This document shows, piece after piece, positions 2,556 to 37,661 of a stretch of 64,000 nt of DNA. Numbering within the stretch: the stretch's first letter is position 1; every line of letters begins with the position of its first letter. Source of the DNA: a virus (Duplodnaviria; Caudoviricetes); the IMG/VR virus record IMGVR_UViG_3300043427_003220, positions 32,001-96,000 of that record. One strand, given 5' to 3'. Under the pieces are notes generated by a model. That model saw nothing but the letters and a program-made list of their open reading frames with translations, had not been told where the DNA came from and did no database searches. The position numbers and the translations under genes are program-made.

Positions 2556-2582
2556 TAAAGTTTCTCCTTGACCCTCCGATAA
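2556..2582 (+). promoter_or_regulatory. Sigma-28 (FliA)-type promoter
   Basis: TAAA-gtttctccttgaccc(15)-TCCGATAA, then GGAGG and ATG at 2614. Confidence 0.8.
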
Positions 2583-2613
2583 GACTTATGTAAGTCAACT
2601 ACGGAGGTCTTCC

Positions 2614-2934
2614 ATGAACAATCTTCAAGCCCAAGCCAGAACCTTCATTGAAACTGCAACCAAGCACAAATTCAACATTGTTGCGACCAGCGACACTGTC
2701 ATCAGAATTACGAGAAAGTTTGAAGTAGGTGACCGTCAAGCATTCTGTGAGTGCGACATGATGGCTTCCAGTGTCCTTGATTTGGCTCCCTTGAAGGGCG
2801 GTTCTGTCTGGGGCACTGATGGTGGTTCTATTGGCGGAGCTGTTGCTCTGCAGGATGGCCTATTTGTCATGAATAAGTCTGGTTCAGGCGGAGCACGCTT
2901 CATGCGTGAACTGCGCAAGCAGCTTGGTCAATAG
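2614..2934 (+). CDS. Hypothetical phage protein (WGTDGGSIGG motif)
   Basis: 106 aa, GGAGG RBS. Confidence 0.7.
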   Translation: MNNLQAQARTFIETATKHKFNIVATSDTVIRITRKFEVGDRQAFCECDMMASSVLDLAPLKGGSVWGTDGGSIGGAVALQDGLFVMNKSGSGGARFMRELRKQLGQ

Positions 2935-2979
2935 AAGTCAATAGAAGTCAATAGATTGGCCGATAGAAGGTCAATAGAA
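2927..2979 (+). repeat. Five roughly 10-bp-phased direct repeats GTCAATAGAA
   Basis: Copies at 2927, 2937, 2947 (9/10), 2959 (GCCGATAGAA) and 2970. Confidence 0.85.
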
Positions 2980-2986
2980 TTTTTGT

Positions 2987-3013
2987 TAAAGTTATTTTTG
3001 AGCGTGACGATAA
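2987..3013 (+). promoter_or_regulatory. Sigma-28-type promoter
   Basis: TAAA-gttatttttgagcgt(15)-GACGATAA, then GGGGGTGA and ATG at 3034. Confidence 0.75.
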
Positions 3014-3033
3014 GTTATTCATGGGGGTGAGTT

Positions 3034-3237
3034 ATGTACGTAGTGATTATTGACTCTGCAACTGACGGCTGGACTGTAAACCAATCTTTTGAAGCTGAGT
3101 TCTCAACGCTCGGCGAGGCAGAATCCTATGTGCGCACGCTTGAGCGTTGGTCTGCTACTGATAGTCAAAAACAGTTGTGGATTTCTCATGGTCCACAGTT
3201 TAGAATTTTTTGTGAAGAATCAGGCGAATACGTTTAA
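3034..3237 (+). CDS. Hypothetical protein
   Basis: 67-aa ORF with RBS, directly after the promoter motif. Confidence 0.6.
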   Translation: MYVVIIDSATDGWTVNQSFEAEFSTLGEAESYVRTLERWSATDSQKQLWISHGPQFRIFCEESGEYV

Positions 3238-3252
3238 TTTATGGAGGTATTT

Positions 3253-3627
3253 ATGTTTAAGTATTTGATTTCTTTTGTTTTGTTGGTCGGTTGCGGTGCT
3301 CCTCAAACGCCAGTAGAGGTGTCAGCAGATAAAATGCTACATGATTTTGTGACTGATTGTAAGTCTGTTTATGGAGATAGATGCAACACTTCTATAGTCA
3401 TTCATAGTTTGGCAGAGTCTGCTGAAGAAGAGGCTTGTTGGTTTGAGGATGGCAATCCCGTTAGGCAAATTGTGCCATACAAAGGCTTTGTGGCTCAAAA
3501 CAATAAAACCGCTGTTTATGAGCTATTGTTTTTTTGTAACTTGAATTTAGGAACACTAGAGAGTAAACTGTTAAAGTTTGATGAATTTGCGTTGGTATTA
3601 GGGTTGACAAAACAGGAGCAGCAATGA
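3253..3627 (+). CDS. Putative lipoprotein
   Basis: Start moved to ATG 3253 after GGAGG. Signal peptide II-like MFKYLISFVLLVG-C. Confidence 0.65.
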   Translation: MFKYLISFVLLVGCGAPQTPVEVSADKMLHDFVTDCKSVYGDRCNTSIVIHSLAESAEEEACWFEDGNPVRQIVPYKGFVAQNNKTAVYELLFFCNLNLGTLESKLLKFDEFALVLGLTKQEQQ

Positions 3628-3836
3628 CGGAATCACAATGGCTTCAGGCACAACAAGCCTATGACAGAGTAAGAGCCTTACTAGTTAAGGACGGTCAAAC
3701 AATGGAGCAAGCTCAAAAAACGCTTGAAACGCTTGTTTTGTTTGTAATGGGAAGTAAGCTTTCAAAAGAAGAAAACAATGTTGATTTAGCTAGATTTATT
3801 GAAGCCATGTTAAAGGGCGATAAGCCTCAATGTTAA
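3624..3836 (+). CDS. Hypothetical protein
   Basis: ATGA overlap with the upstream gene, AGGAG RBS. Confidence 0.6.
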   Translation: MTESQWLQAQQAYDRVRALLVKDGQTMEQAQKTLETLVLFVMGSKLSKEENNVDLARFIEAMLKGDKPQC

Positions 3837-3848
3837 GGAATTTTAATT

Positions 3849-4094
3849 ATGGAACAGCAATGGATTAGCGCCAAAAAAGCAAAAAAAATGCTTAAAATTG
3901 ATGAAGAACAGTTAGATATTTTAGAAAAACAGGGAAAAGTTAAAACAATTCAGTCTATTGGCAATAAACTGTATCTTTTGTCTAGTCTTTCTGAAGAAAA
4001 GATTGAGTCTTTGCCACAAGAAACGCAAAAAAATATTCAAAAAAACGTATTTAAAAGATTTTTTTCTAAAGTTTTTTCTTGGCTTTCTGTTTAA
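3849..4094 (+). CDS. Small HTH (MerR/excisionase-like) DNA-binding protein
   Basis: WISAKKAKKMLKI...L..LEKQGKV pattern resembles HTH_17/MerR-like domains. Confidence 0.45.
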   Translation: MEQQWISAKKAKKMLKIDEEQLDILEKQGKVKTIQSIGNKLYLLSSLSEEKIESLPQETQKNIQKNVFKRFFSKVFSWLSV

Positions 4095-4134
4095 TTGTTT
4101 GAAAAAAATATATTTTTTCTAACTAGGAATTTTT

Positions 4135-4473
4135 ATGAAACATTTATTTTTATGTGTATTATTGGTTGGTTGTGCGACATCTCCGCAAGTTCCAAATTTG
4201 GCTCCACAACCAACGCCCTCCCCTACCCAAACGCCCAAACGCAAGCCAAAATACAAGGTTGGCGACTGTCTTATGATTGTAGATTTGATTAAAGGCGAAA
4301 CTGAATCTCGCCATAGAGTCAAAATTGAGAAAGTCGGCGTAGATCGTTATTACTACAGATGGCTTCTTGACGACGGACGTTGGGACTCGGAATTATCTGG
4401 CAGCGCTGGCAAATTTGAAGTTTTAGAAAAAATTTCAAAAAAAGTGTTTGACTGCCCTAAAGTTTCACAATAA
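4135..4473 (+). CDS. Putative lipoprotein
   Basis: MKHLFLCVLLVG-C lipobox followed by a Pro/Thr linker. Confidence 0.65.
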   Translation: MKHLFLCVLLVGCATSPQVPNLAPQPTPSPTQTPKRKPKYKVGDCLMIVDLIKGETESRHRVKIEKVGVDRYYYRWLLDDGRWDSELSGSAGKFEVLEKISKKVFDCPKVSQ

Positions 4474-4484
4474 ACAGTCGATAA
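4458..4484 (+). promoter_or_regulatory. Sigma-28-type promoter
   Basis: TAAA-gtttcacaataaaca(15)-GTCGATAA, then AAGGAGG and ATG at 4522. Confidence 0.8.
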
Positions 4485-4521
4485 GTCTTACATGAGCAAT
4501 TCAGCTCGTAAAGGAGGCTTT

Positions 4522-4764
4522 ATGCAGGTTTATGTAATTACTTCAGTGGTTAATTCATATGAAGATGTTTCTCCAAATTATGGCGCTGCCAGTGTGTGGT
4601 ACGAAGTGTTTCGTAATAAGGAAGATGCTGTCAACCTTTTGAAAGAATGGGGCTGCGAGCCATTGTCAGACGCAGAAGATACCTTTGCTAGAAAAAAAGA
4701 AAAAGATGGGTGTGTTTACAATTTTTATTACAAAATCAACTCTCAGTTTTTTGCAGGAGCTTAA
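4522..4764 (+). CDS. Hypothetical protein
   Basis: Start moved to ATG 4522 after AAGGAGG. Confidence 0.6.
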   Translation: MQVYVITSVVNSYEDVSPNYGAASVWYEVFRNKEDAVNLLKEWGCEPLSDAEDTFARKKEKDGCVYNFYYKINSQFFAGA

Positions 4765-4765
4765 G

Positions 4766-4855
4766 ATGACAGAATATCAATTTTTTTTAATTTTTGCGGT
4801 TGCCGTAGCCGCATTGTTTGTGTTGGGGTTGACGGTTAATATCATTCAAGACTAA
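4766..4855 (+). CDS. Small single-TM peptide (29 aa)
   Basis: MTEYQFFLIFAVAVAALFVLGLTVNIIQD with AGGAG RBS. It fills the intergenic gap exactly. Confidence 0.5.
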   Translation: MTEYQFFLIFAVAVAALFVLGLTVNIIQD

Positions 4856-4867
4856 GGAGTCACTGTC

Positions 4868-5137
4868 ATGGCTAATCCAAAAGTGATACTTCAGGCAGCA
4901 GACTTCTTGACCAAAATGAACATACCCTATAAGTCCATCAAGATGTTTGGGAAGATGCTTATGATTAATACAACGGACTATGAATCTGCTTGTATTATTG
5001 AAAGTATCCTTAATGGCTCTGGCGCAGCCAATGTCAGTGTAGAGGCTCCAGAAGACCGCTATAGCGATGACTATGCGGTGGTTGGCCTTCTAAATGATGA
5101 AATTGAATACGATGACGAGCAGGATGAAGAGCAATGA
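4868..5137 (+). CDS. Hypothetical protein, acidic C-terminus
   Basis: 89 aa, AAGGAG RBS. Confidence 0.6.
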   Translation: MANPKVILQAADFLTKMNIPYKSIKMFGKMLMINTTDYESACIIESILNGSGAANVSVEAPEDRYSDDYAVVGLLNDEIEYDDEQDEEQ

Positions 5138-5328
5138 AACACTTAGTTGCAGCCATTATGTTTTTTCAGATTTGTGGCAATGATTTGGTAATTATTAAGA
5201 ACAATCAACCTTATGCCGTCTGCGGCACTGTAACGCAACTATGCAAAAGTCTTGACATTATTGATTTAATGCTGATTAGGCAGATTTCTTCTTGTTCAAC
5301 TTTAAAGAAGTTTAATGTTATTGAGTAG
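5134..5328 (+). CDS. Hypothetical protein
   Basis: ATGA-coupled 64-aa ORF. Confidence 0.45.
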   Translation: MKHLVAAIMFFQICGNDLVIIKNNQPYAVCGTVTQLCKSLDIIDLMLIRQISSCSTLKKFNVIE

Positions 5329-5337
5329 GAGCTTACT

Positions 5338-5940
5338 ATGCTGAAGGTACTTTTGGCTTTGTTGTTAATTGGGTGTGGAACCGTCGAGCAACAAATAATA
5401 GAAGTAGAAAAAGAAGTCCCTGTCCCGTTCTACATTGATAAGTCAAAAGTAGATTCTAAGCTGCTCCCATATGTCATGGAATTTGCAGGCCATTGTGAAA
5501 AGTTTGGAGTTTCTGAACTTTGTCAAAAAAACTTTAAAAAAATTAAATCAATTAAAACAGTTAAATCTTTTTCTGAAAAAATGGTTTTGGGCAAGTGCTA
5601 TATGCACCATAGTGGTCAAAGGTGGGTTGAGGTCACAGAAAGTTGGTACAACTTGGATTCACACTCCATGCGCACTGTCATTATTCATGAGATGATGCAC
5701 TGCACTTTGGCTGCTGGAGACGCCGAAATCTTTCCTCACTACGACGACGAAGAAGACATCATGAACAGCTACCTTTTGTCAGAAAAAACTTTGTTTTTTA
5801 ATTGGCCGGCTTTGTTGAAGGCTGTGTTTCTTAGGGCTGGCGGGACTTTGTCATTGACAAGCCCAGCAGAGACTGCTACAGTAACGCAAACCATAATGGA
5901 CGAAACGGGAGGAATATCTTGTGAAGCCAGAAAAGATTAG
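5338..5940 (+). CDS. Lipoprotein zinc metallopeptidase (matrixin/metzincin-like)
   Basis: Lipobox LLIG-C, HEMMH motif, downstream His and DIMNSY Met-turn-like motif. Confidence 0.65.
   Translation: MLKVLLALLLIGCGTVEQQIIEVEKEVPVPFYIDKSKVDSKLLPYVMEFAGHCEKFGVSELCQKNFKKIKSIKTVKSFSEKMVLGKCYMHHSGQRWVEVTESWYNLDSHSMRTVIIHEMMHCTLAAGDAEIFPHYDDEEDIMNSYLLSEKTLFFNWPALLKAVFLRAGGTLSLTSPAETATVTQTIMDETGGISCEARKD
5854..5882 (+). promoter_or_regulatory. Sigma-70-type promoter inside the peptidase gene, upstream of 5921/glpX/terminase
   Basis: TTGACA-N17-TACAGT with TG extended -10. Confidence 0.5.
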
Positions 5941-6295
5941 TTACGAAGCACTAAAAGAACAATTTCCAGAACTGCTTGATAAGTGCCCGATTGAAGTTAG
6001 AGAGGGATGGTACGGACTTGTTTGGGATATGTGTGAGCAGATATTGGCTGCACGCAAAGCCAAAAATATACCGATTGATGAAGAGAATCCCTTTTATTTT
6101 GTGCAAATTAAAGAAAAGTTTGGCACTTTGAGGGCATATGCTTCTTGGTCAACAGAGGAAGATGAAAAGATTATTTCTATGTTTGAAGATATGAGTCAGT
6201 TTGTCTGCGATGCCTGCGGCGGTGTTGGAAAACTCAGGGGTCAGTATTGGCTCTATACGGCCTGCGATGAGCATACAAACCCTAAAGACAGGTAA
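5921..6295 (+). CDS. Conserved phage hypothetical protein with C-terminal Cys pairs
   Basis: QIKEKFGTLR-Y and CDACG...C motifs, GTG start after GGAGG. Confidence 0.65.
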   Translation: MKPEKISYEALKEQFPELLDKCPIEVREGWYGLVWDMCEQILAARKAKNIPIDEENPFYFVQIKEKFGTLRAYASWSTEEDEKIISMFEDMSQFVCDACGGVGKLRGQYWLYTACDEHTNPKDR

Positions 6296-6298
6296 GAT

Positions 6299-7201
6299 AT
6301 GGATTTCTTTAAGTTTTTGCGAGTCACTGAAGCAGCAGCTATTGCTAGTTCTAAGTGGATTGGCAAGATGGACAAAAATGCAGCAGATGGAGCTGCTGTA
6401 GATGCCATGAGGGCAGAATTTGATTTTATGGATATTCAAGGCGTTGTGGCTATCGGTGAAGGCGAACTCGACGAAGCTCCTATGTTGTACATTGGCGAAA
6501 AGTTAGGGACAGGCCGTGGTGACAAGTATGACATTGCTGTAGACCCACTAGAGGGGACTGAGTTGGTTGCTAAGGGTAAACCCAATGCTATCTCTGTTAT
6601 GGCTGTAGGAGATTGGGGTTGCCTCATGAGAGCGCCTGATTGCTATATGGATAAGATAGTTGTGGGTTCAAACGCTAAAAGTGCTCTAGTAAGTCTATTC
6701 AAGACTCCTGAGCAAAACCTTAAAGCAATTGCCGACACAATGAGGAGGCCAGTCAAAGACCTGACTGTTTGTGTTTTAGATAGGCCAAGACATATTGATT
6801 TGATTAAAGAAATTACCCAATTAGGGGCTAAAATATCACTTATCAGTGACGGCGACGTACTCGCTGCTATTGGTGTGTGTATGGGCAAGTACGATGTGTT
6901 GATGGGTATTGGCGGCGCTCCAGAGGGTGTTGTATCGGCTGCAGCAGTCAAGAGTCTGGGTGGAAGGATTCTAGGACGTTTAGTATTAGATACATCAGAA
7001 CTCAAAGAACGAGCCGCCAAGATGCACAAACGCGAAGATATAGAGTACGATACGGTAGATATGGCTCATGGTGAACATATAGCCTTTATTGCGACGGGAG
7101 TGACAGACTCTTTCTTGTTGAACGGAGTCATCCACAATGAGGTCCATTCAGTTATACTGACTCCAAAAGAAAGAAGATTCATAAAGACAACTTATGGCTA
7201 A
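6299..7201 (+). CDS. glpX: Class II fructose-1,6-bisphosphatase (GlpX family)
   Basis: GEGELDEAPMLYIGE, DIAVDPLEGT, LDRPRH, ISDGDV, GIGGAPEGV and ATGVTD motifs of GlpX. Confidence 0.93.
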   Translation: MDFFKFLRVTEAAAIASSKWIGKMDKNAADGAAVDAMRAEFDFMDIQGVVAIGEGELDEAPMLYIGEKLGTGRGDKYDIAVDPLEGTELVAKGKPNAISVMAVGDWGCLMRAPDCYMDKIVVGSNAKSALVSLFKTPEQNLKAIADTMRRPVKDLTVCVLDRPRHIDLIKEITQLGAKISLISDGDVLAAIGVCMGKYDVLMGIGGAPEGVVSAAAVKSLGGRILGRLVLDTSELKERAAKMHKREDIEYDTVDMAHGEHIAFIATGVTDSFLLNGVIHNEVHSVILTPKERRFIKTTYG

Positions 7202-9170
7202 GAAAAAAGAACCAGAAATAACAGAAGAACAGCGACTGCGCATTGAGATGCGTAAGCGCCTTTTGTTTACTATTTGTGAATCTAAAGAAGAGCTTCAACA
7301 ATTTATTAAAACTTTCCTTAAGCTAGATTTGCCAGACTGTACAGTAGACGAACTGTCTACTTCTAATCCTATGGAGTCAGTTTGGCAAATTTACTGTACA
7401 ATGAGGACCAACAAGGGCGCCCATCGTGTTGTCGTGGCTGCTTCTCGTAACTCAATGAAGACCGTTATGTCGGCAGTCATTCACTGGTTGGCCATGGTTC
7501 ACTTTAGAAGGTCATGCCTGCAGATTGCCGCCATCAAAGACCAATCTTATAAGGCAATCAAGTATCTTAAGAAATTCCTCCGTATTCCGGAACTTCAAGA
7601 CCACTTTGAAACAAACAGAGCAGGCGAACTTAGACTATCTAATTTGCCTCCCAACTCATATACATCTAAAGATGATGCAGACGTATTTGTGACAGCAGCA
7701 ACCCTTGAAGGTGCTAACTCATCACGTGCGTCTATTATCATTCGAGATGAGTGTGACTTAACACCCAGAGAGATTCTTTCAGAAGTTGCTATGGTTGCCG
7801 ACCCTACTCAAGACGAACACGGCTTTGAGCCAATCACAATTTCTTTGTCGTCTCGCAAGACTTCTCAGGGACCCTTGCAAGAATTGATGGAAGAGGCCGA
7901 GAAGGGCGAAGATACGGACATTAGGTTGGATAAGTGGTCAGCAGTAGACTTCATGAGAAAGTGCCCTCCCGAAGTTCACGGAGAGAAAAGACTCAAGGCA
8001 TACCTTCATACGGAAAACCTTAAAGTTAGATGGGATGAGGAGACATTTCAAGAAGAGCCGCAGGCTATCAAAACCAAGTACAAAGAAATATTGGCCTACG
8101 AAGGCTGCGTTACTTGTCCTGCGTTTATTGCCTGTCAAGCTCGCGCTCCTAAGCAAACAGGCAAGTCAAAGACATTAAGAACAATTGCCTTTACGGGCAA
8201 CTTTATTAAAGAAACCAAAGAAGCCAATAAGATTATTGCCCAGATTTTGAACTGGCGTCCTGAAACCGGCGGCTTAGTGTTTCCTACGTTTAGTCGTCAT
8301 CTTCACGTGAGAAACGTGGAAGAAACTTGGCTTTGGGTAACTGGTCAACAATGGAAAGCGAATAGAAAATGCACTAAGCAGGATGTCTATGCTTGGGCAG
8401 TGACGAACAAGTGGGAAGTTAGCTTCGGTGTTGACTGGGGTGTTAGAGATGCCGCCGTGGTTACGGTAATTCTGTATTCACAAACTCAATCGCGTTGCAT
8501 TGTTTTAAGCGTTCGCGCAGCTACGGGCTACCCTAACTCTCAGTGGGCTGAAACTATTAGACAAAAAGAATGTATGACTTTTCCGCCAGACATTATCTGC
8601 CCTGATATGGCTGATGCTGGCTCGGCCCATTATTTTCAGCCGTATGGTTTCGCCGTCAAAACTAAAAAGCCAGCTCAAATTGAAACAGGTGTAAGCCAAA
8701 TTCAGTCGTTATTGTGGAATGTCGAAAGACAAGAGGCCGACGTAGTATTTTGCAAGACGGAAAACGATTCGGGGATGGACTTTGCTATTGATTGTATGAT
8801 TGGTTGGATGCACAAGAAAGACCCCCGTGGAGAGTTTGACACAAGTCGATACGAAGACGATGATAACACTCACTTTCCCGATGCTTTTCGTTATGCGTTG
8901 GACAAATATCGAACTTCTATGGAAATTCGTATCGCCTCCAAAAAGAATATTGAACAGGCCCCCATGACTCGCGAACAAGCCTATCGCAAAGATATTGATG
9001 CCGCTATGTACGATACCTATAAAGAAATGGGCGTCCCTATGATGCCGTCGCAACTAGCTGAAATGACTATAGACGCTTACAGAAAAGCTGGCATGGGGCA
9101 CCTTATTGAGGGTGATTCTCAGGGGCCGGCTCCTGAGCCAAAGAAAAAATTAATCAAATTTAGTATTTAA
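7194..9170 (+). CDS. terL: Terminase large subunit
   Basis: Deviant Walker A (AASRNSMKT), Walker B (IIIRDE), RNase-H-like nuclease motifs GVDWG..D and H.PDAFRYA, with an HNH gene and a portal gene nearby. Confidence 0.8.
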   Translation: MAKKKEPEITEEQRLRIEMRKRLLFTICESKEELQQFIKTFLKLDLPDCTVDELSTSNPMESVWQIYCTMRTNKGAHRVVVAASRNSMKTVMSAVIHWLAMVHFRRSCLQIAAIKDQSYKAIKYLKKFLRIPELQDHFETNRAGELRLSNLPPNSYTSKDDADVFVTAATLEGANSSRASIIIRDECDLTPREILSEVAMVADPTQDEHGFEPITISLSSRKTSQGPLQELMEEAEKGEDTDIRLDKWSAVDFMRKCPPEVHGEKRLKAYLHTENLKVRWDEETFQEEPQAIKTKYKEILAYEGCVTCPAFIACQARAPKQTGKSKTLRTIAFTGNFIKETKEANKIIAQILNWRPETGGLVFPTFSRHLHVRNVEETWLWVTGQQWKANRKCTKQDVYAWAVTNKWEVSFGVDWGVRDAAVVTVILYSQTQSRCIVLSVRAATGYPNSQWAETIRQKECMTFPPDIICPDMADAGSAHYFQPYGFAVKTKKPAQIETGVSQIQSLLWNVERQEADVVFCKTENDSGMDFAIDCMIGWMHKKDPRGEFDTSRYEDDDNTHFPDAFRYALDKYRTSMEIRIASKKNIEQAPMTREQAYRKDIDAAMYDTYKEMGVPMMPSQLAEMTIDAYRKAGMGHLIEGDSQGPAPEPKKKLIKFSI

Positions 9171-9210
9171 TGTTAAAATGTACCATAGTTTCAACTAAAG
9201 GAGAAAAAAC

Positions 9211-9474
9211 ATGGCTCTATCAGATAAAGCAAAACAATACCTTGAGTACGCTCTTGCAAGCCAAGAAGTAGCTGACGAAGTCGTTGCTTCTCTTGACAAG
9301 CAAGCCGAAACCGTTGCCGCTATTGGCGCTACAGCAAACCTCGTCGGTACAGACGGCGCTGGCGGAGCTGGAGATGCGGCACCACTTGCTGGAACTGAAT
9401 CACGCCTCGATGCGGTCGAAGCTAAAATCGACTCCGTTATTGCCGCTCTTAAAGCCGCAGGACTAATGAAGTAA
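9211..9474 (+). CDS. Small virion protein, head fibre/decoration-like
   Basis: C-terminal KIDSVIAALKAAGLM helix typical of phage head-fibre proteins, strong RBS. Confidence 0.5.
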   Translation: MALSDKAKQYLEYALASQEVADEVVASLDKQAETVAAIGATANLVGTDGAGGAGDAAPLAGTESRLDAVEAKIDSVIAALKAAGLMK

Positions 9475-9476
9475 TA

Positions 9477-9809
9477 ATGATTGGCCACGTAAAAGATGTA
9501 ATTAAGGGAAAAGCTAAGCTTTTTTCAAAGCGTTCTTCTAGGTGGCCATCATTACGCAAATCTTATTTAGAGACTAATAACTCATGTGCAGCTTGCGGCT
9601 GCACAGAGTTTTTAGAAGTGCATCACATTGAACCGTTTCATGAAAATCCTTCCTTAGAGCTAGAAGCAAGTAATCTTATTACGCTGTGCGACAAACCTGG
9701 CAAAGATAATTGTCATCTTGAGATTGGCCATCTTGGCAGCTTTAAGAGCAAAAATCCGAATGTTCGAGAAGATGCAGCCAAAGCCCTTCAAGAAAAAATT
9801 AAAGAATAA
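9477..9809 (+). CDS. HNH endonuclease
   Basis: CAACG...LEVHHIEP...NLITLC...CH...H motif. Confidence 0.88.
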   Translation: MIGHVKDVIKGKAKLFSKRSSRWPSLRKSYLETNNSCAACGCTEFLEVHHIEPFHENPSLELEASNLITLCDKPGKDNCHLEIGHLGSFKSKNPNVREDAAKALQEKIKE

Positions 9810-9826
9810 ATTCCACAGTCCGATGA
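9800..9826 (+). promoter_or_regulatory. Sigma-28-type promoter
   Basis: TAAA-gaataaattccacag(15)-TCCGATGA, then GGGGGTGG and ATG at 9847. Confidence 0.6.
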
Positions 9827-9846
9827 GAAACTCATGGGGGTGGACT

Positions 9847-9951
9847 ATGAACCTTATTTTAAGTGCAATTGTTGTTTTTGTTGGTTATTGCATGATTAAA
9901 ATTGGTCTTTTTTGGATTGGATTGCTTATGTGGATTTTAAATTTGCTGTAA
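9847..9951 (+). CDS. Small hydrophobic membrane peptide (34 aa)
   Basis: MNLILSAIVVFVGYCMIKIGLFWIGLLMWILNLL with RBS. Confidence 0.5.
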   Translation: MNLILSAIVVFVGYCMIKIGLFWIGLLMWILNLL

Positions 9952-9986
9952 AATTAAGTTGGCTGTTCGACCAATAAAGGACCCAA

Positions 9987-10307
9987 ATGAAAAATATTTA
10001 CGTCTGTGCCCCTTGGCGTGACCCGAACTCTATCCTTCAATTCAAACAAATCTGCAATAAAATCATTCAGATGGGGCACAATCCAATCTGTTGGGAAATA
10101 ATGTACTCGTCGCTTCTTGACTTTTCTGATTATAAAAACAGAGACAAGGCGCTGAATATGGGTTTATCCCTCATGAATACTTGTCACGAAGTGTGGTTAT
10201 TTGGAGCCAAGACTCCATCAATGCTTCAAGAGATAGAGTTGGCCAAAATAAAAGAATTGACAATTGTGGAGCACTCTCTTCTTGACTTTCTTCATAGTTC
10301 AAGGTAA
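9987..10307 (+). CDS. Nucleoside 2-deoxyribosyltransferase-like (DUF4406-type) protein
   Basis: IYVCAPW...GHNP...LMNTCHEVWLFG...M..EIELAK pattern. Confidence 0.6.
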   Translation: MKNIYVCAPWRDPNSILQFKQICNKIIQMGHNPICWEIMYSSLLDFSDYKNRDKALNMGLSLMNTCHEVWLFGAKTPSMLQEIELAKIKELTIVEHSLLDFLHSSR

Positions 10308-10310
10308 AAT
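10282..10310 (+). promoter_or_regulatory. Sigma-70-type promoter upstream of the 10335/portal operon
   Basis: TTGACT-N17-TAAAAT. Confidence 0.55.
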
Positions 10311-10334
10311 GTCGAAGACTATAGGAGTTTTCGC

Positions 10335-11315
10335 ATGTCCTATCTATCTTTGACTCTAAATACAGCGGCCTCTTCAGTTGAAAACCCGCTAAAATCAACA
10401 ACCGCAGCAACTATGAACTTTGAAGTTGCTGGACTAGTCCTCGATATTGCCGAGGGCTTTAGCGTATCTCTTGACCCCTATGAAGAGCGCATTATTGCGT
10501 CAACTCGCAAGTCACTGTCTCTTGACGCCACAACACAACTTCAGATTATTCAGCCTTATAATAGTTTAGGGCAGGAATCTCTTTGGAGAGTGCAGTGGAT
10601 TGGCGGCACAAACCCTAACTTTCGTGTTAGAAGGTCACTTACGGTTAACTCTACGACCACCGTCAGCGTAACTCGCCTTAATGATATTGTTGCTCGTGTG
10701 CAGTTTTCAGGAGCAATTGGCTCGAATGCAAAATTAAACGATATTCTTCTCTTTGAAAAAGACAATGATATTGGTTTACAATCTCCTTTCAATGCGGTCA
10801 ATACCGGCATTCCTTGTCGTATTGTAGGAGTTGGAGCAGACTTCCTCGACGTGGAAGATTCAGGAGTTCTTGTTAATGACCCAAGTGTTCTCCTTGGCGT
10901 TGATTATCTCGATGTACTCAAAGTCTTTTCCGCTATTGGTGCTCAAATCACTGATACTCTGAGTATTTCATCTTCTGCATTCAACTACGGAAACCGAGGT
11001 TCGTTCAAGATTGTTGCTGTGTCGGCAGACTATATTGACATTGAAGCGCCATCTCTTGTTCCCGAAACGGTATCCAACATTACCGAAGGTTTTAGAATTT
11101 TCATTAATACTATTTATTACATTGCCCTGAAGGCAAAGGGTTCGTTTAAGTTGGTCGTTGATGAAAAAGAACTTGACCTTTCTCCGTTAGGTGATACAGC
11201 TATATTTGCAAGCTCCGTGACTTGCTCAGAAGTTATTGTTAAGAATATGTCTGATGGTATGTTGTCTGTTGAGGGTCTTTGGTGCGCTTCTGGTATAAAC
11301 GGAACTGCTTGTTAA
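10335..11315 (+). CDS. Putative virion structural protein
   Basis: 326-aa beta-rich ORF directly upstream of the portal gene. Confidence 0.5.
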   Translation: MSYLSLTLNTAASSVENPLKSTTAATMNFEVAGLVLDIAEGFSVSLDPYEERIIASTRKSLSLDATTQLQIIQPYNSLGQESLWRVQWIGGTNPNFRVRRSLTVNSTTTVSVTRLNDIVARVQFSGAIGSNAKLNDILLFEKDNDIGLQSPFNAVNTGIPCRIVGVGADFLDVEDSGVLVNDPSVLLGVDYLDVLKVFSAIGAQITDTLSISSSAFNYGNRGSFKIVAVSADYIDIEAPSLVPETVSNITEGFRIFINTIYYIALKAKGSFKLVVDEKELDLSPLGDTAIFASSVTCSEVIVKNMSDGMLSVEGLWCASGINGTAC

Positions 11316-11330
11316 TAATAGGAAATTTCA

Positions 11331-13325: not shown

Positions 13326-13326
13326 T

Positions 13327-13354
13327 TAAAGTTCGTTCCCGTGTGTTCCGATAA
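13327..13354 (+). promoter_or_regulatory. Sigma-28-type promoter
   Basis: TAAA-gttcgttcccgtgtgt(16)-TCCGATAA, then GGAGG and ATG at 13376. Confidence 0.75.
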
Positions 13355-13375
13355 TTGTACTTGGAGGTACCCGTT

Positions 13376-13902: not shown

Positions 13903-13904
13903 TT

Positions 13905-14366: not shown

Positions 14367-14397
14367 CTGAAAATATACTTTTCTTTATGGTGTTTAA

Positions 14398-25417: not shown

Positions 25418-25519
25418 GGCGGCCCCCACTCATATTCATAAGTAACAATGGCAACACTATCATAAGCGAACCGACCAGCACAAGAGCAAAATTAAACATA
25501 GCTCACCTCCATACCATTC

Positions 25520-25547: not shown

Positions 25548-25603
25548 GTATTATTGTAAAATAAGGCCATAAGGTCACGTCCAAACTCCTGTAAAGGTGC
25601 AAA

Positions 25604-28600: not shown

Positions 28601-30505
28601 CAAAGGTCTGCGTTTACTGGTCAAGACGGAATGGTTCGATACAACACGACAAATAATTTTTATGAAGGTCATTCTGCTGGAAGCTGGGCCCCATTAAGTG
28701 GCGGCAGAGTGGTTAATATCTCTTCTACAACAACACTATCAAATGAAACTAGATACCTAACAAATACTTTTGCAGGACCTTTTTCAGTTACACTACCTCT
28801 TGGCTCCCTTAATTCAAGAATTGAGATTAAAGACGCTGTTTATACATGGCAAACAAATAACTTAACAATTATTCCTGCTTCTGGCCAGAGAATTGAGTCA
28901 TTGGCGGTCAACGAGTCGCTTGTGTGCGACATCAACGGTGGGTGGGTTGTATTAGATTGGGATAATGCAAACTCAGTTTGGAACCTTTCAACAAGTGCTT
29001 TGGTTGATTTAAATGATACGTATGCTACCGAAAGCTATGCGGGAATTGTAAGTACAAGCAATCAAACTTTTGCAGGAACAAAAAAATTTAATGATGGTAT
29101 TATATTAGAAACAAATACCACCCCTGCAATTGCTCCGTCGAATGGCATTCAAGTTTACGCAAAAGCAGACAATAAGCTTTACACCCTTAATTCTTTGGGT
29201 GTGGAGCAAGCGGTCGGTTCCGGCGGTTCAGTATTGTCAATTGCTCAATCTGCGCACGGTTTTACCTCCGCTGACGTTGGTCGTCCGTTGTACCTTAATA
29301 CTTCTTTATACGCCTTTGCGCAAGCAAACACCGAAGCAAGGGCAGAGGTTGCTGCGCTCATTAGTAGAATCGTTGACGCAGATAACTTTGAAATCTGTCT
29401 CGGCGGTGAAGTCTCTTCTGTGGGGTCTAATCTAATTGTTGGCGGCGGCTCTCTTACGCCCGGAGAAATGTACTTTTTGTCCGCAACTGACGAGGGAAAG
29501 ATTTCTATTACTCCTCCGTCCGTGGTTGGTCAGATTTCTAAACCCGTTGGTATCGCCCGTACTACGACTGCGCTTGATTTCTTCAATATGCGCGGTTTGC
29601 CGGTTGGCGGAACAAACGCATATTCACAAATTACACTTACTAATAACGCAGTCACAACTATTCAAAATGCTTCGGCTTATGATAGCGTTGAGCTTTCCGG
29701 CTGGGTTTATATTAACGCAACCGTAAAATACCGCTTTGCTATAAAAGTTCAAGTAACTAAAAATGGAGCCGGAAATAACTATCTTGTCAGCTTTCAGCAT
29801 TCCGGTGATACCCCACCAACGGGATTTGACATAGACGCAACTGCGGCTGGTCTTGTTCAGATTACGCTTCCGTCGATTGCCGGTTTTACGTCTGCGGTTG
29901 TACAATTTAGCCTCAACGGCCCCGCAGTTGGCGCTAGTTTGCCATTGCAAATTGAGTCTACAAACGTAAGCTTTAGTACAGTTCAGGCTAAAGATAGCAC
30001 TGGTATTGCTTTTCGAAATTCATCTGGAACCACGATTGCAACTTTAAATAACAGCGGTCATTTGCTTTTACCAAAAATTCCAGTATTTTATGCGTGGAGG
30101 CCAGGTGCTGCTTTTGCAACGACTACCGGAGCTTTCGGAACAATCGCACCTGTATTTAATACAACCAGAGTAAATGTGGATACTTGTTACAATACAACAA
30201 ACGGCAGGTTCACCGCACCAGTTGCGGGAATTTATGAATTTCAATTTGGAATTACACATAGATGGAGCACCGGAGCAGGTAATTTAGAGCCAACTTTTTA
30301 TGTTGATGGCACAAATGCTTCTCCCAGAGGATGTGCGTATTCGTATGTAACCGCCGCGAATGATCATGATTGGGTTCATACTCATATTATCCTATCGTTA
30401 AACGCAGGTCAGTACGTTCAATGCGGAATTCATGCATGCGCAGCCGGAACAGATTATTATTATGGCGAACAGTTAGGTTATTTTTCTGGTAAATTAATTG
30501 GATAA
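25604..30505 (+). CDS. Long tail-fibre/virion protein with C-terminal C1q-like domain
   Basis: 1633 aa, T/S/G/N-rich, internal ADVD..AAI..TK repeats. Ends with PVF...YNTTNGRFTAPVAGIYEF...L.LNAGQYV...FSGKLIG (C1q pattern). Confidence 0.8.
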   Translation: MSEILHKDLIGEDIHELKVTVSAAPPASVPIFVGQGYYDLVAKKFYVAQGTSLLSDWITTDIPPFLTFLDTRTISWTSTTSGGGTQITYSANVEEAELILTSTNITDFSNAVLTLPEIVSLLADQHTRLILRTGGEPNPTVWSPAVFNGLELDSDSQKIKLSQNLSEIGDPTFNETTLTIRSRTPLLTLTSGGTPTAASLYLDGSKGMVARGFAGSTSSFTLQNEAGDDVLKNPVSTDQLVLPSLGGLDAPYVVHSDASGLLSASKLVDADVDAAAAIAGTKVSPDFGSQNITTTGSVLVDTIESNTNDIGILTGNDNKTILIGTGSGYNTINLGGTNTVVNISGAVYTTPVEYVTEDKNIVVNFNASGQDSPDSGLYVQEEYSGALINLTDATWQAGNTVRYAVDIAGIDGLVAGEYVRITGFVNTQNNGTFKVLTANAGYIDVVNPKRTDASKDETGVTANAARLLLNGYIHVGSTRMSWEVRAPAHAGIIELKPQTAAKTLQITSESSNDVTVKFNTNLTVDQDLQKTSSVEFSDAKISTFGTGIVHSNASGQLSSSLIQNADVDGSAAIAGTKISPDFGSQNITTTGDLSVSSVKVTGIEPVGGANFFTSATNGLVLRGVAGTSAQFKLISDLGVNFVTITDTSVTFHSLTNGVVKASSGTLSSSLLVNADVDAAANIEGSKIQAAGPTNAGVVDTATQSFSGNKTFNGNVSITNFSAAGVVHNNAAGLLSTSLIMNADVDPSAAISATKLSNQPSGNIAATTVQAAINELDTEKVAKSGDSMTGDLSFASNFGIQSTSASSVLDVGTNANTAVLNLGTGSFTNTINLGTGSGTTTINIGGPSDTVNITGTLNTVNVTDMEITDKNITLNKNGPAASGDGSGINIEEGSLITGFSKIGNSRTSWEFKAPASSGSVLLTPSAGAHVAEFKIPALSSSAIYTFPLTTDSIVGRNSTDDLSNKTLFNPKIDQITPYNVDQTITINGTAGLKIPSGTDAQRSAFTGQDGMVRYNTTNNFYEGHSAGSWAPLSGGRVVNISSTTTLSNETRYLTNTFAGPFSVTLPLGSLNSRIEIKDAVYTWQTNNLTIIPASGQRIESLAVNESLVCDINGGWVVLDWDNANSVWNLSTSALVDLNDTYATESYAGIVSTSNQTFAGTKKFNDGIILETNTTPAIAPSNGIQVYAKADNKLYTLNSLGVEQAVGSGGSVLSIAQSAHGFTSADVGRPLYLNTSLYAFAQANTEARAEVAALISRIVDADNFEICLGGEVSSVGSNLIVGGGSLTPGEMYFLSATDEGKISITPPSVVGQISKPVGIARTTTALDFFNMRGLPVGGTNAYSQITLTNNAVTTIQNASAYDSVELSGWVYINATVKYRFAIKVQVTKNGAGNNYLVSFQHSGDTPPTGFDIDATAAGLVQITLPSIAGFTSAVVQFSLNGPAVGASLPLQIESTNVSFSTVQAKDSTGIAFRNSSGTTIATLNNSGHLLLPKIPVFYAWRPGAAFATTTGAFGTIAPVFNTTRVNVDTCYNTTNGRFTAPVAGIYEFQFGITHRWSTGAGNLEPTFYVDGTNASPRGCAYSYVTAANDHDWVHTHIILSLNAGQYVQCGIHACAAGTDYYYGEQLGYFSGKLIG

Positions 30506-30517
30506 GGGGTATAAACA

Positions 30518-30970
30518 ATGGCAAAGACTACATTAATAGAAAAAGGCCAAATACTCCAATGTGCATATTTTGGTGAATTTAGCGGCAGTGGAACAAATAA
30601 TAACTGGTCTTTAGCATTGGGGACCGCATCGTTTACTCCGAAAAAAGCAAATTCTCAAATTTTAATAATGTACAATGGCACCCTTTATAATAACTCAGTT
30701 CCCTCTTCAGCTGGCGGCGGAGCAAGATTAAAAAGAAATGGCGTCGTTATTCAATCAGCGCAAAATACGGACGGCGGCGGCACGCAACCATATGCCATGT
30801 ATGCTTCCGGATTAGGAAATATGGCGACAAGGCTTCATTATCAATACTTAGACACACCAAACACAACGTCTGCAATAAATTATTCAATAGAAGTATCGTC
30901 ATACAGCACCGCAAGTTCCGCATTTACTGCTTTTGGTTGGTCAATTGTAATAATGGAAATTGCGGGGTAG
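30518..30970 (+). CDS. Stand-alone fibre tip domain protein
   Basis: SFTPKKANSQILI...YLDTPNTTSAINY...IVIMEIAG pattern common at phage fibre ends. Confidence 0.6.
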   Translation: MAKTTLIEKGQILQCAYFGEFSGSGTNNNWSLALGTASFTPKKANSQILIMYNGTLYNNSVPSSAGGGARLKRNGVVIQSAQNTDGGGTQPYAMYASGLGNMATRLHYQYLDTPNTTSAINYSIEVSSYSTASSAFTAFGWSIVIMEIAG

Positions 30971-30972
30971 TT

Positions 30973-31425
30973 ATGGCAAAAGTACCATTAATACAAAGTA
31001 GCTATCCTGTTTTTCCAGATAGACCTTACTTTTTTGCTAATACCGTTGGAGAGGGAAATGCAGGAAATGGTCTAACTCGAACTATTGTTTTTGGTACGGC
31101 GGTTGAAAACAGAGGCAGCTGCTACAGTACATCCACTGGGAGATTTACAGCTCCAATCGGCGGTGTATACCATTTTGACTGTTTAGTGATGGAAGAAACT
31201 TATTATGGCAATTGGAGCGATTGGGATTGTTATTTTAGAAAAAATGGAACAGCAATTGCTGGTATTTTGGGTGACATCAACACACCTCAATTAGATGAAC
31301 AAGTTTTTAGCGCATCGGTTACGGTATATTTAAACACCGGAGATTGGGTTGACATAGTGCTTTATACCAGCGGTGCCAACACAATTGAAGCTCCGTCTTA
31401 TTTTTGTGGACATTTAGTGGGGTAA
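30973..31425 (+). CDS. Stand-alone C1q-like domain protein
   Basis: YSTSTGRFTAPIGGVYHF...VYLNTGDWV...FCGHLVG. Start at ATG 30973. Confidence 0.75.
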   Translation: MAKVPLIQSSYPVFPDRPYFFANTVGEGNAGNGLTRTIVFGTAVENRGSCYSTSTGRFTAPIGGVYHFDCLVMEETYYGNWSDWDCYFRKNGTAIAGILGDINTPQLDEQVFSASVTVYLNTGDWVDIVLYTSGANTIEAPSYFCGHLVG

Positions 31426-31427
31426 GT

Positions 31428-31892
31428 ATGGCAAAAGTACCATTAATACAAAGTAGCTATCCTGTTTTTCCTGAACGCCCTTCTTTTTTTATAGGGTGGC
31501 CTGGGGCAATGTCTTTAACCGGAACCGCCGCTCTTCCTCCCACCGGCGGATCGGTAAAATTTAATAATGGTTCTCATTTTAATACTTCGACAATGCGCTT
31601 TACCTGTCCTGTTGCTGGACTGTATTTAATAGGCGCAAGCTATTTACGGCAAAACGCAAGTAATGCTGTAGTTCGTATGAATGCTTTTAAAAATGGAACC
31701 GGTGAAAATCAGCAGTTGCGTTCTACCGAAGCCTATACTGGTTTTAATTATACAGCCGGACAATGGTGGTTAATAAAAGCAAATGTTGGCGATCTTTTAG
31801 ATGTCAGAATTTCGGCAGACAGCGCAACCTCTTTGTACGCAGACGGTGGAAACGGTGAATATAATTGGATTTGTGGGTATTTGATTGGATAG
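31428..31892 (+). CDS. Stand-alone C1q-like domain protein
   Basis: FNTSTMRFTCPVAGLYL...GDLLDV...CGYLIG. First 44 nt are identical to the gene at 30973. Confidence 0.75.
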   Translation: MAKVPLIQSSYPVFPERPSFFIGWPGAMSLTGTAALPPTGGSVKFNNGSHFNTSTMRFTCPVAGLYLIGASYLRQNASNAVVRMNAFKNGTGENQQLRSTEAYTGFNYTAGQWWLIKANVGDLLDVRISADSATSLYADGGNGEYNWICGYLIG

Positions 31893-33761: not shown

Positions 33762-33788
33762 TAAAGTTCTTGCAACAAAAGACGATAA
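33762..33788 (+). promoter_or_regulatory. Sigma-28-type promoter
   Basis: TAAA-gttcttgcaacaaaa(15)-GACGATAA, then AGGAGGT and ATG at 33816. Confidence 0.8.
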
Positions 33789-33815
33789 GATTTATGGTGA
33801 GTGTAGGAGGTACCT

Positions 33816-33884
33816 ATGCTCATCAGTCTTTTATTGGCTTTATTAATAGCCTATGTAGCGGCTAGATTAGGGAGTATTATATGA
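33816..33884 (+). CDS. Small hydrophobic peptide (22 aa)
   Basis: MLISLLLALLIAYVAARLGSII with AGGAGG RBS and ATGA overlap with the next gene. Confidence 0.55.
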   Translation: MLISLLLALLIAYVAARLGSII

Positions 33885-35901: not shown

Positions 35902-35925
35902 AACTCTGCGAGAACAGGTAGTTAT

Positions 35926-35953
35926 AAAAAAAGAAGGCGACGACTACGTCGCC
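35926..35953 (-). terminator. Intrinsic terminator (minus strand)
   Basis: GGCGACG-loop-CGTCGCC hairpin with TTCTTTTTTT following on the minus strand. Confidence 0.6.
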
Positions 35954-36080
35954 ACCCATCCTTTACACCCTACACTTTCTGTATGTGCCCCTACAATTCT
36001 TGAAGCCGAAGAAGAAATTCTGCAATATGTTATGTATTTAGTTTTATTAAACAAAATAAAATAAAGCCATTTTACTGGCT

Positions 36081-36539
36081 TTAGATTGGGTTTGCAGACA
36101 TCTTTTGAATCAAGCTAAGCGTTGTTTTGGCCCTATAGATTTCAAACTTCTTGCCGCTCATAGAGCATCTCATACTATCTCTGTGCATTGATGTCTTAAT
36201 TTGCTTTACCTCTTCTTCAATTGCTGGAGAGTAGGTTTTGCCATTTTCCAACAAGACCTTTACGTAGACTGTAAAGCCGTCCGACCCTAAAGCTGCCACT
36301 GTCAAATAAGCCGCACCATTAGATACTGTAGTCTTTTCAGTGATGGCTGAACTCAACGCTCCAGCCGTCTCTTCGTTTGGAGCCAACAAAATAACACCCA
36401 AAACATCTGACGCCTTGGTCAATTCGGCCACTTCATCAACGCAATCCGTTGTCTTTTCTTCAAGAATCTTATTAATAGACAATCCACTCAATCCCACTAC
36501 TACCACTGCCGCTAAAGCAAACTTAAGAACTCGTTTCAT
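36081..36539 (-). CDS. Putative exported/membrane-anchored protein
   Basis: MKRVLKFALAAVVVVG signal-like N-terminus. Confidence 0.6.
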   Translation of the reverse strand: MKRVLKFALAAVVVVGLSGLSINKILEEKTTDCVDEVAELTKASDVLGVILLAPNEETAGALSSAITEKTTVSNGAAYLTVAALGSDGFTVYVKVLLENGKTYSPAIEEEVKQIKTSMHRDSMRCSMSGKKFEIYRAKTTLSLIQKMSANPI

Positions 36540-36829
36540 TGCTCACCTCCTACTTCATTATCGTCATCTTCGTCAGAATCTTTAATATTTTCTTTATCGT
36601 CTCTACTCCATTCTTTTTTTAAATGCTCGTCGAGTTTTGGTTTGTGTTTAAGAGGATGATAGTGATTTGTAATCGCATTTAAAACTAAGGCCACGTGTCC
36701 TGCCTTAAACCCTTCTGGTAAATGGCTAGCCAGCTCTTCCGTAAGGTGCTCAAAGCAGAGCTTCTTGGAAAACATAGGCGTTACCATTGCGTCGCATTTC
36801 TTGCATTTTCGCCACCGCTCACCTTCCAT
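36536..36829 (-). CDS. Hypothetical protein with CxxC motif
   Basis: CKKC...LCFEH, ATGA coupling. Confidence 0.6.
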   Translation of the reverse strand: MEGERWRKCKKCDAMVTPMFSKKLCFEHLTEELASHLPEGFKAGHVALVLNAITNHYHPLKHKPKLDEHLKKEWSRDDKENIKDSDEDDDNEVGGEQ

Positions 36830-36841
36830 AACACTCCCAAA

Positions 36842-37381
36842 TCAAAAGAAAATTTCTTCAAATTCTTCGTAATCTCTTTCAAAAATTTGCATAGCTTGAG
36901 ACTTGTCATAAAAAGAACGCAAAACGGGATGATGGGTCACATTATCTACTTCTGCAAATACCCACTTAGTTCTAGAAGACTTATGAAATAAAATAGAACC
37001 AACTGAAAATGGGAGCTTTTTGATTTCAGGCTTCTTGTTTTCTTCTTTGGCCGCCCAGCCATGATTTCTTAAAGATGGAGGTTGAGGCTGATATGCTGCT
37101 GGAGAAACTCCTGCCACACTGGACGACATCCCTGTACTCAAGTCAATCTTAACTGTCATGCACAAATTAGAGTCGTAATACTCAACTACGTTCGTCCAAT
37201 GATCGTAGGTTGCAGATGCAAGCCTCTTAATAACAGAGTCGTGCATGTCTAGTGCCGTGTAACTAGGCCACACCATAGTGAACTGATGGTTGTTATTGAC
37301 ATCCATTGTGCCATCAGCTTGCAAAACAGCATTTAATACCGAATCATAAAAAATATCATTTTTATTAAGTGGATACGCCAT
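36842..37381 (-). CDS. Hypothetical protein
   Basis: About 179 aa, AGGAG RBS. Confidence 0.6.
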   Translation of the reverse strand: MAYPLNKNDIFYDSVLNAVLQADGTMDVNNNHQFTMVWPSYTALDMHDSVIKRLASATYDHWTNVVEYYDSNLCMTVKIDLSTGMSSSVAGVSPAAYQPQPPSLRNHGWAAKEENKKPEIKKLPFSVGSILFHKSSRTKWVFAEVDNVTHHPVLRSFYDKSQAMQIFERDYEEFEEIFF

Positions 37382-37613
37382 CGTCAACTCCTAGGAAGCT
37401 GATTTCATTATTTTCTTTGTCAAAATCACACTCTACAAAATTATCATCAAGAAATTTATCAATAGCTTCAATAAGTTGCTTTGTATAAGCTTCGTTGCCG
37501 GAATAAATTACGCGCATAATGTGTCCAAGCTCACCTTTGGTTCCCAAAGATAGCAACAACACATCCAATGACTCAGAATAAAAATATTTACCTTCTTGAT
37601 CATATTTACTCAT
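37365..37613 (-). CDS. Hypothetical protein
   Basis: AAGGAGG RBS, first gene after a sigma-28 motif. Confidence 0.65.
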   Translation of the reverse strand: MSKYDQEGKYFYSESLDVLLLSLGTKGELGHIMRVIYSGNEAYTKQLIEAIDKFLDDNFVECDFDKENNEISFLGVDDGVST

Positions 37614-37634
37614 ATTGCCTCCTTTGTAATATTC

Positions 37635-37661
37635 TTATCGACGGCTTGACATTATTCTTTA
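37635..37661 (-). promoter_or_regulatory. Sigma-28-type promoter
   Basis: Minus strand reads TAAA-gaataatgtcaagcc(15)-GTCGATAA, then AAGGAGG and ATG at 37613. Confidence 0.8.

Follow-up and report, generated by a model that had tools for sequence, protein, structure and literature searches.

Enriched sigma-28 (FliA)-type promoter-like sites precede small orphan genes in a large, apparently lytic phage

Which RNA polymerase holoenzyme transcribes the small accessory genes of a large phage whose own genome encodes no recognisable sigma factor? The question is raised by a 64,000-nt stretch of viral DNA (hereafter, the window), which comprises bases 32001–96000 of the 162,747-bp IMG/VR record IMGVR_UViG_3300043427_003220 and in which a bipartite motif resembling promoters of sigma-28 (FliA), the sigma factor for flagellar genes, recurs at gene boundaries. 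The record has terminal repeats of 127 bp, is rated 100% complete and has a G+C content of 42%; it represents a myovirus-like and apparently lytic phage. Positions below are those of the window unless given as genome positions. The original prediction, made from the window sequence, had described the motif as TAAA followed after 15–16 nt by NNCGATAA (TAAA-N17/18-CGATAA), and had proposed that it heads islands of early accessory genes read by the sigma-28 holoenzyme of the host or by a sigma-28-like factor of the phage.

The window contained 11 matches to TAAA-N17/18-CGATAA against 1.11 expected, a count reached by none of 100 shuffles, and the complete genome contained 19 matches against 1.14 ± 1.02 in 200 dinucleotide shuffles. 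With the longer first element, TAAAGT-N15/16-CGATAA, 12 matches were found genome-wide against 0.055 expected. All eight exact sites were recovered where the original prediction had placed them (2556, 2987, 4458, 13327, 17088, 17255 and 33762 on the plus strand and 37635–37661 on the minus strand), as were its two variants (TCCGATGA at 9800 and ACCGAATA ending at 25547 on the minus strand), and the genome-wide enrichment over shuffled controls, which it had named in advance as a test, was found. Three further window matches (36558, 36594 and 63410, all on the minus strand) fell inside coding sequence. The sigma-28 consensus of Escherichia coli is TAAAGTTT-N11-GCCGATAA, a total of 16 positions (PMC2859248, Table 1). 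Scored against this consensus, 17 sites in the phage genome matched at 14 or more of the 16 positions; 40 shuffles averaged 0.40 such sites and never gave more than 2. Six sites matched at 15 or more positions, and one, at 17088, was perfect.

When aligned on the -10 box, the phage sites gave the consensus yTAAAGTTw, a spacer of 11–12 nt of free sequence, and nnCGATAAG. Among the 15 sites used to train a position-weight matrix (PWM), TAAAG was present in all and TAAAGTT in 12, while CGATAA was present in 13, the remaining two carrying CGATGA and CGAAAA. The PWM added two sites, with the -10 boxes CCGATAT and CCGATAGG. The spacer between the octamers was 11 or 12 nt in every listed site, and CGATAAG was the most enriched intergenic 7-mer of the genome (present in 10 upstream regions, with 29 occurrences genome-wide). 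Neither hexamer of the sigma-70 promoter (TTGACA-N17-TATAAT) was present at these sites. Judged from the sequence, the sites are a strongly enriched class of promoter-like elements that match sigma-28/FliA in both boxes and in spacing.

The placement of the sites is also that expected from the original prediction, which had put them at gene boundaries, facing the downstream gene and close to a ribosome-binding site and ATG. The coding share of the genome is 95%, and intergenic sequence makes up 7,832 of 162,747 bases; 14 of the 17 sites scoring at least 14/16 were intergenic. The sites were co-oriented with the next gene, with a Shine-Dalgarno sequence and ATG 19–40 nt downstream (19–21 nt at seven sites). 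The gene right after the site was an orphan, here meaning a gene without a homologue even in the four distant relatives described below, in 15 of 16 cases, compared with 110 of 198 genes genome-wide as called by a simple gene caller, and most of these first genes encoded proteins of 56–166 aa. The predicted 'small-gene islands' were therefore borne out, in that the first genes were small and poorly conserved. At 9800, 17088 and 33762, the next open reading frame (ORF) was only 22–34 aa long, and two of these ORFs were hydrophobic. The claim that no site precedes a fibre or head gene held for the fibre genes, none of which had a sigma-28-type site directly upstream, but only roughly for the head genes: the portal gene begins 1.5 kb downstream of the 9800 site, whose unit passes two small genes and continues into the portal gene with no terminator predicted in between. 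The order on the plus strand after this site is a 34-aa hydrophobic ORF, a gene of 106 aa, a core gene of 326 aa and finally the portal gene.

Regarding the individual sites, the one at 2556–2582 (+; 15/16, TAAAGTTT-N11-TCCGATAA) is separated by 31 nt from the ATG of an orphan gene of 106 aa, and a putative sigma-70-like promoter, TTGACA-N17-TACAAA (2498–2526, +), stands in tandem with it about 35 nt upstream. The 2987–3013 site (+; 14/16) stands at the start of a series of small orphan genes. In front of it are tandem repeats of the 10-mer GTCAATAGAA, of which 2.9 exact copies and one degenerate copy extend across the stop codon of the upstream gene (2927–2973); these repeats are retained in the relatives L011, L016 and L018, all of which are without the 2987 promoter. 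The sites at 4458–4484 (+; 15/16) and 17255–17282 (+; 15/16, with a 12-nt spacer) precede an 80-aa gene and a 56-aa gene by 37 and 21 nt, respectively, while the site at 13327–13354 (+; 14/16) lies immediately 3' of the portal stop codon. The perfect site at 17088–17114 (+) is followed by an ORF of 28–31 aa. For the variant at 9800–9826 (+), CGATAA was found at the same place in the relatives L009 and L017, and the weak variant at 25520–25547 (−; 12/16, TAAAGGTT ... ACCGAATA) occupies the orthologous position of a better site in a distant relative. The site at 37635–37661 (−; 13/16, TAAAGAAT ... GTCGATAA) lies 21 nt before an 82-aa gene in a divergent intergenic region whose neighbour on the other strand is a fibre gene. 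A possible internal site of uncertain status (36558–36584, −; 14/16) falls within the 3' end of a coding sequence, and the start codon that follows is 18 nt away.

The site at 33762–33788 (+; 14/16) is followed by a strong hairpin (33794–33826; −17.6 kcal/mol, z = −5.8), which encloses the Shine-Dalgarno sequence AGGAGG together with the beginning of a hydrophobic ORF of 22 aa and may be a translational control element. Folding did not find a 5' hairpin as a general feature after the promoters, this site being the sole case. A longer, partly palindromic tail, CGATAAGnnTTATGTAAG (GACTTA-TG-TAAGTC), was found at 2576–2600 and at genome positions 2729–2750, 155216–155235 and 158192–158210, and may mark the start region or an operator.

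The two boxes were conserved more strictly than their surroundings among close relatives. In an alignment of the 13327 site with nine relatives of 89–99% portal identity, TAAAGTT was invariant in all nine and the -10 box (CCGATAA) carried one or two changes in five, while the spacer differed in eight and the flanks varied too. At 2556 and 4458, the promoter block was kept despite unrelated sequence on one or both sides, and the relatives L016 and L018 conserved the 2556 block with different flanks. At 25547 (−), the orthologous site in the distant relative G004 was a better match, with the same CCGAATA box and a diverged spacer. These alignments indicate that the boxes are under selection and that the spacer is free.

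The complete phage genome (G000) was further compared with four distant relatives found via the portal profile and represented by whole records (G001–G004). Its best named portal match was Myxococcus phage Mx1 (24% identity), and SPO1-like phages of Bacillus and Staphylococcus ranked next; when 15 kb of the window was compared with named phages by megablast, no match was obtained. In G001 (45% portal identity) and G004 (40%), 13 and 6 sites, respectively, scored at least 14/16, against 0.72 and 0.57 expected; their forms were CTAAAGTTTT ... GCCGATAw and TAAAGTTAGA ... TCCGATATGT, respectively. G004 additionally had 33 sites at 13/16 or more against 8.5 expected, and 15 of its 20 PWM matches were intergenic, most of them within 106–126 kb. 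No site of at least 14/16 was found in G002 (37%) or G003 (35%). In G003, the top intergenic word was TTGACT, and 33 intergenic sigma-70-like sites were counted, against 2–6 in the other genomes. Since G001 and G004 carry sigma-28-type sites and G003 carries sigma-70-like ones instead, the two classes seem, from these counts, to replace one another within one phage clade as the commonest full promoter.

Within the phage itself, full sigma-70-like sites (TTGACw-N16–18-TAnnnT) were rare (6 intergenic), and several stood in tandem just upstream of sigma-28-type sites. A different element, TGnTAnAAT (often TGATAAAAT), occurred 7 times in upstream regions against 0.52 expected (for example, at 23383–23391 and 51295–51303 and at genome positions 6638 and 96364) and preceded the sheath, fibre and other conserved genes; TAAAAT occurred 27 times against 4.5 expected. 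The TGnTAnAAT element looks like an extended -10 class of sigma-70 promoter.

The motif also recurred in viral records unlike this phage. Exact matches to all 16 consensus positions were found in at least 119 stretches of IMG/VR, with several contigs carrying 2–4 perfect copies. In 13 further records, picked for at least two perfect copies and thus informative on recurrence and not on frequency, the looser pattern occurred 3–10 times each, compared with 0–1 for a reversed control. No FliA/WhiG match at E ≤ 0.01 was found in any of these 13 records, 5 of which were at least 90% complete. The four examined in full (43, 60, 88 and 118 kb; G+C content of 31–47%) carried the form CTAAAGTTT-N11-rCCGATAAG (CTAAAGTTT ... 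CCGATAAG), mostly in intergenic positions 20–50 nt before start codons. Their portals indicated separate lineages: one was distantly like those of Rhizobium and Roseobacter phages (32% identity), another showed 30% identity to that of a phage of Silvanigrella aquatica, and two were without a named relative. The motif was not enriched in the S. aquatica phage genome (1 site of at least 13/16 against 0.8 expected).

The search for a phage sigma factor for which the original prediction had asked was run on the complete genome and found none. No match was obtained with the Pfam profiles of Sigma70 regions 2, 4 and 4_2 (PF04542, PF04545 and PF08281), TIGR02937, TIGR02479 or phrog_351, the PHROG sigma family matched by the sigma factor annotated in Mx1, and across the five genomes G000–G004 no protein exceeded the threshold for Sigma70 region 2. 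A custom FliA hidden Markov model (HMM), built from 34 FliA proteins from genomes of Bdellovibrionota and other phyla and run unfiltered against all six-frame ORFs of at least 40 aa, gave a best E of 0.14 in the phage; the matches at E = 0.14 and 0.24 were rejected as short helical stretches. The annotated Mx1 sigma factor was itself barely detectable (E = 9e-4 on Pfam region 2), and no homologue of it was found in the phage. Pfam and PHROG scans of the genes that follow sigma-70-like promoters, of the core unknowns and of the genes confined to motif-bearing genomes likewise showed nothing sigma-like, and PDB sequence profiles returned nothing significant for the sigma candidates.

Only three genes of the phage were confined to the motif-bearing genomes among G000–G004, encoding proteins of 244, 236 and 125 aa. 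The 244-aa protein (L006:12255–12986, −; genome 135252–135986) is encoded upstream of the GroEL-like gene, had no Pfam match and returned nothing in the Atlas. Its model, built from 23 homologues, had a predicted local distance difference test score (pLDDT) of 82.7 and an MT-A70/CcrM-like DNA methyltransferase fold, and the protein was rejected as a sigma candidate on account of this predicted fold, which is methyltransferase-like and not sigma-like. The 236-aa protein is acidic with a coiled coil, and the 125-aa protein was judged to fall below the sigma-sized range of the screen.

From these results, the sites, about 17 in the genome and 10 in the window, would be bipartite sigma-28 (FliA/SigD)-type promoters, each serving a short transcription unit made up of accessory genes that are small and evolve fast. 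Their transcripts would begin a few bases 3' of CGATAA, leaving a leader with the Shine-Dalgarno sequence only, and initiation would be by the host RNA polymerase with the host's own sigma-28. We infer that the sites are active promoters; the early timing and the link to motility put forward in the original prediction are hypothetical. The host polymerase and host sigma-28 are proposed because the phage encodes no recognisable sigma factor; of the two readers named in the original prediction, the host factor is thus favoured, and the phage's own factor is left without a sigma match. Furthermore, the same 14–16-position specification is found in phages of 40–45% portal identity and in viral records that differ widely in genome size, G+C content and, where a named relative exists, portal affinity, and in which no sigma gene was detected; this points to a conserved host factor. 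Such a factor is most simply the explanation of the recurrent specification, and sigma-28 has exactly such specificity. Reading of these promoters by the host sigma-28 holoenzyme is, on balance, probable.

The sites can be set beside several known systems. SigD promoters of Bacillus subtilis have the form TAAA-N15-GCCGATAT, and the relative G004 has the CCGATAT form of the -10 box. Phage sigma cascades, such as those of SPO1 (gp28 and gp33/34) and T4 (gp55), rely on sigma genes of the phage and on promoters that are not known to resemble a host class. In the present phage, too, different sets of genes have promoter classes of their own, and some of the sites stand in tandem with sigma-70-like ones, but no sigma gene was detected and its promoters equal a host class. 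The class 3 flagellar promoters of E. coli and Salmonella, as described in PMC2859248, share the octamers and the 11-nt spacing; they differ in that the phage sites front small orphan genes and not flagellar or chemotaxis genes, and the phage keeps GC before CGATAA weakly, while the G after CGATAA is nearly invariant. In Bdellovibrio bacteriovorus, TTAAG-N16-CCGATA is reported for 92 of 140 mapped attack-phase promoters (PMC3627812), so that there, too, a sigma-28-type motif with the same overall spacing extends beyond flagellar genes and forms the main class of a whole programme. That programme is a cellular regulon, however, and its -35 element is TTAAG where the phage has (C/T)TAAAG; the form is similar but not the closest one. 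Use of host FliA has been proposed for fliC_P, a flagellin gene of Enterobacter prophages (bioRxiv 10.1101/2023.11.30.569447). As proposed there, this case is likewise a phage gene expressed via host sigma-28, but it concerns one lysogenic-conversion flagellin gene of temperate phages, whereas here about 17 promoters front non-flagellar orphans of a 163-kb phage.

Several points weigh against reading by the host factor. It presupposes a host with FliA and flagella, and sigma-28 is normally scarce and held by FlgM, making it an odd choice for a phage's main promoter class; neither an FlgM nor an anti-FlgM gene was found in the phage. The 13 additional records were chosen for the motif, and two metatranscriptome runs (shares of 0.10 and 0.06 of the stretch) yielded short, low-depth contigs on 1–20000, of which a single one spans the 13327 site and carries no start information. 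G001 encodes a stand-alone sigma region 4 of 84–97 aa (L179:1450–1743, −, in G001 130278–130959), which reached 25.7 bits with the Pfam profile Sigma70_r4, above the cut-off of 24.1, and matched positions 189–262 of the custom FliA HMM at E = 2.4e-9, and whose gene lies 46 nt after the best sigma-28-type site of G001; phages of this clade thus do encode proteins with sigma ancestry. A second, weaker region-4-like ORF is next to it (L179:1065–1406, −). Counterparts of the region-4 protein were absent from G000 and G004, and it might, speculatively, be a decoy for FlgM or a binder of the -35 box. Finally, with 110 of 198 genes being orphans and with phage sigma factors as divergent as that of Mx1, there is room for a hidden factor, since the genome consists mostly of orphan genes and phage sigma factors can diverge extremely.

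Such a hidden factor, which could be a sigma factor of the phage itself or else a split or sigma-like protein beyond the reach of profiles, would read the sites as a middle class in the style of SPO1 gp28. The barely detectable sigma factor of Mx1, the nearest named relative, the distant SPO1 likeness of the phage (its portal and a Phi812-type tail tube), the abundance of orphan genes and the region-4-only protein of G001 favour it, as does the position of several sites just downstream of sigma-70-like promoters; in SPO1, early and middle promoters stand in tandem. We nevertheless regard it as unlikely: six profiles and the unfiltered FliA HMM were blank in the phage, no homologue of the Mx1 sigma factor is present, and the sigma-sized 244-aa candidate has a predicted methyltransferase fold. 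Moreover, a factor too diverged to be recognised would need to have retained precisely the specificity of sigma-28, at 14–16 positions, across phages of 40–45% portal identity and viral records of very different genome size and G+C content. The host sigma-70 holoenzyme could instead be remodelled by phage proteins in the manner of T4 AsiA/MotA, with TAAAGTT as an activator box or TAAAGT as the -10 hexamer. TAAAGT does resemble a -10 hexamer, at genome 158148 TTGACT lies 17 nt upstream of it, and TAAAGA can act as a cryptic sigma-70 -10 element according to PMC2859248. Across the sites, however, no consistent -35 element or TG extension was seen upstream of TAAAGTT, and the most conserved element, CGATAAG, lies at a fixed distance downstream and lacks the final T of TATAAT. 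No AsiA/MotA-like genes surfaced in the family scans, in which no search by name was made, and this explanation is judged improbable.

The motif might also not be a promoter but a site bound by some regulator of the phage, or else a linker for recombination at the boundaries of mosaic modules. At 2556, 2987 and 4458, the conserved block adjoins sequence that is wholly different between relatives, and some sites carry the extra conserved tail described above, both in favour of this reading. Two boxes at fixed spacing with a free spacer, the strict gene-facing orientation, the short and constant interval before the Shine-Dalgarno sequence and ATG, and the identity with a known promoter consensus all speak for a promoter, and promoters at module junctions would fit both readings; a purely non-promoter role is accordingly given very little weight. 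Recognition by a non-canonical RNA polymerase of the phage is the least likely of the explanations weighed here. The literature describes such enzymes in some large phages, and several large proteins of this phage are unannotated. Against this, scans of nine large proteins with PHROGs found no polymerase subunit (the matches being baseplate, DNA polymerase, SbcC-like and structural proteins), and the unannotated proteins of 1322 and 808 aa have no homologue in G001 and G004, which share the motif. To our knowledge, the known promoters of phage polymerases are not bipartite sigma-type motifs.

The host was sought through the gene content of the phage and among Bdellovibrionota genomes. The glpX gene (class II fructose-1,6-bisphosphatase; 6299–7198) was identified by TIGR00330 (E = 4e-78); its product is 45–56% identical to bacterial enzymes across many phyla and forms a long branch of its own in the tree, which points to no host. 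No tRNA genes were found in the phage. The portal profile matched none of 401 Bdellovibrionota genomes, a result that is uninformative for a lytic phage, and neither this profile nor the glpX tree linked the phage to that group, the one suggested for the host in the original prediction. FliA was present in 58 of the 61 genomes sampled and is not discriminating. The phage encodes a family-9 glycosyltransferase domain (heptosyltransferase by its Pfam name), and this domain together with the affinity to Mx1 leads us to lean towards a Gram-negative host.

An 11-kb module (20673–31892; genome 52673–63892) is shared with G004 (158–168 kb) at 67–95% protein identity, in contrast to the core genes of the two phages, which are only about 40% identical. 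The module contains a helicase, a family-9 glycosyltransferase-like gene and a 1633-aa fibre protein ending in a C1q domain. It looks like a recent exchange and hints that the two phages share a host.

The remaining gene content is that of a large phage. The Phi812-type tail tube is a 172-aa core protein identified in the Atlas, and the genome further encodes baseplate and fibre proteins of very large size, besides a DNA polymerase, a protein resembling SbcC, a ribonucleotide reductase, a GroEL-like chaperonin and two ClpP-like proteases. In an NCBIfam family scan of 149 proteins, glpX and ribonucleotide reductase were among the best 25 of 292 families. Three tail-collar-fibre-like paralogues, 74–76% identical to one another, are found at both ends of the record (genome 114–905, 161081–161866 and 161906–162694).

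For transcription, the phages described so far are known to rely on the sigma-70 of the host, on sigma factors of their own or on their own polymerases. A sigma-28-type promoter class of a phage was not described in the literature searched, although an older report may exist, and a lytic phage whose main promoter class is that of an alternative sigma factor of its host has, as far as we found, not been described previously. The broader view would be that a clade of large lytic phages, together with several other, unlike viral records, has moved most of its accessory or host-takeover expression onto the flagellar sigma factor of the host, while sister phages kept sigma-70. Infection would then be wired to the motile state, or sigma-70 would be silenced while the phage genes run on sigma-28, and the region-4 mimic of G001, expressed from such a promoter, would be a possible FlgM decoy; we put this forward tentatively, at somewhat less than an even chance. 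As the motif is identical to the E. coli consensus, use of sigma-28 can be tested without knowledge of the host. If sigma-28 does read these sites, they would provide natural sigma-28 promoters that differ in strength and form a portable set, and a simple sequence signature that predicts flagellated hosts of uncultured phages. Phage expression would then hinge on a regulator whose activity is confined to motile cells with flagella, and the outcome of infection would be tied to the state of the cell.

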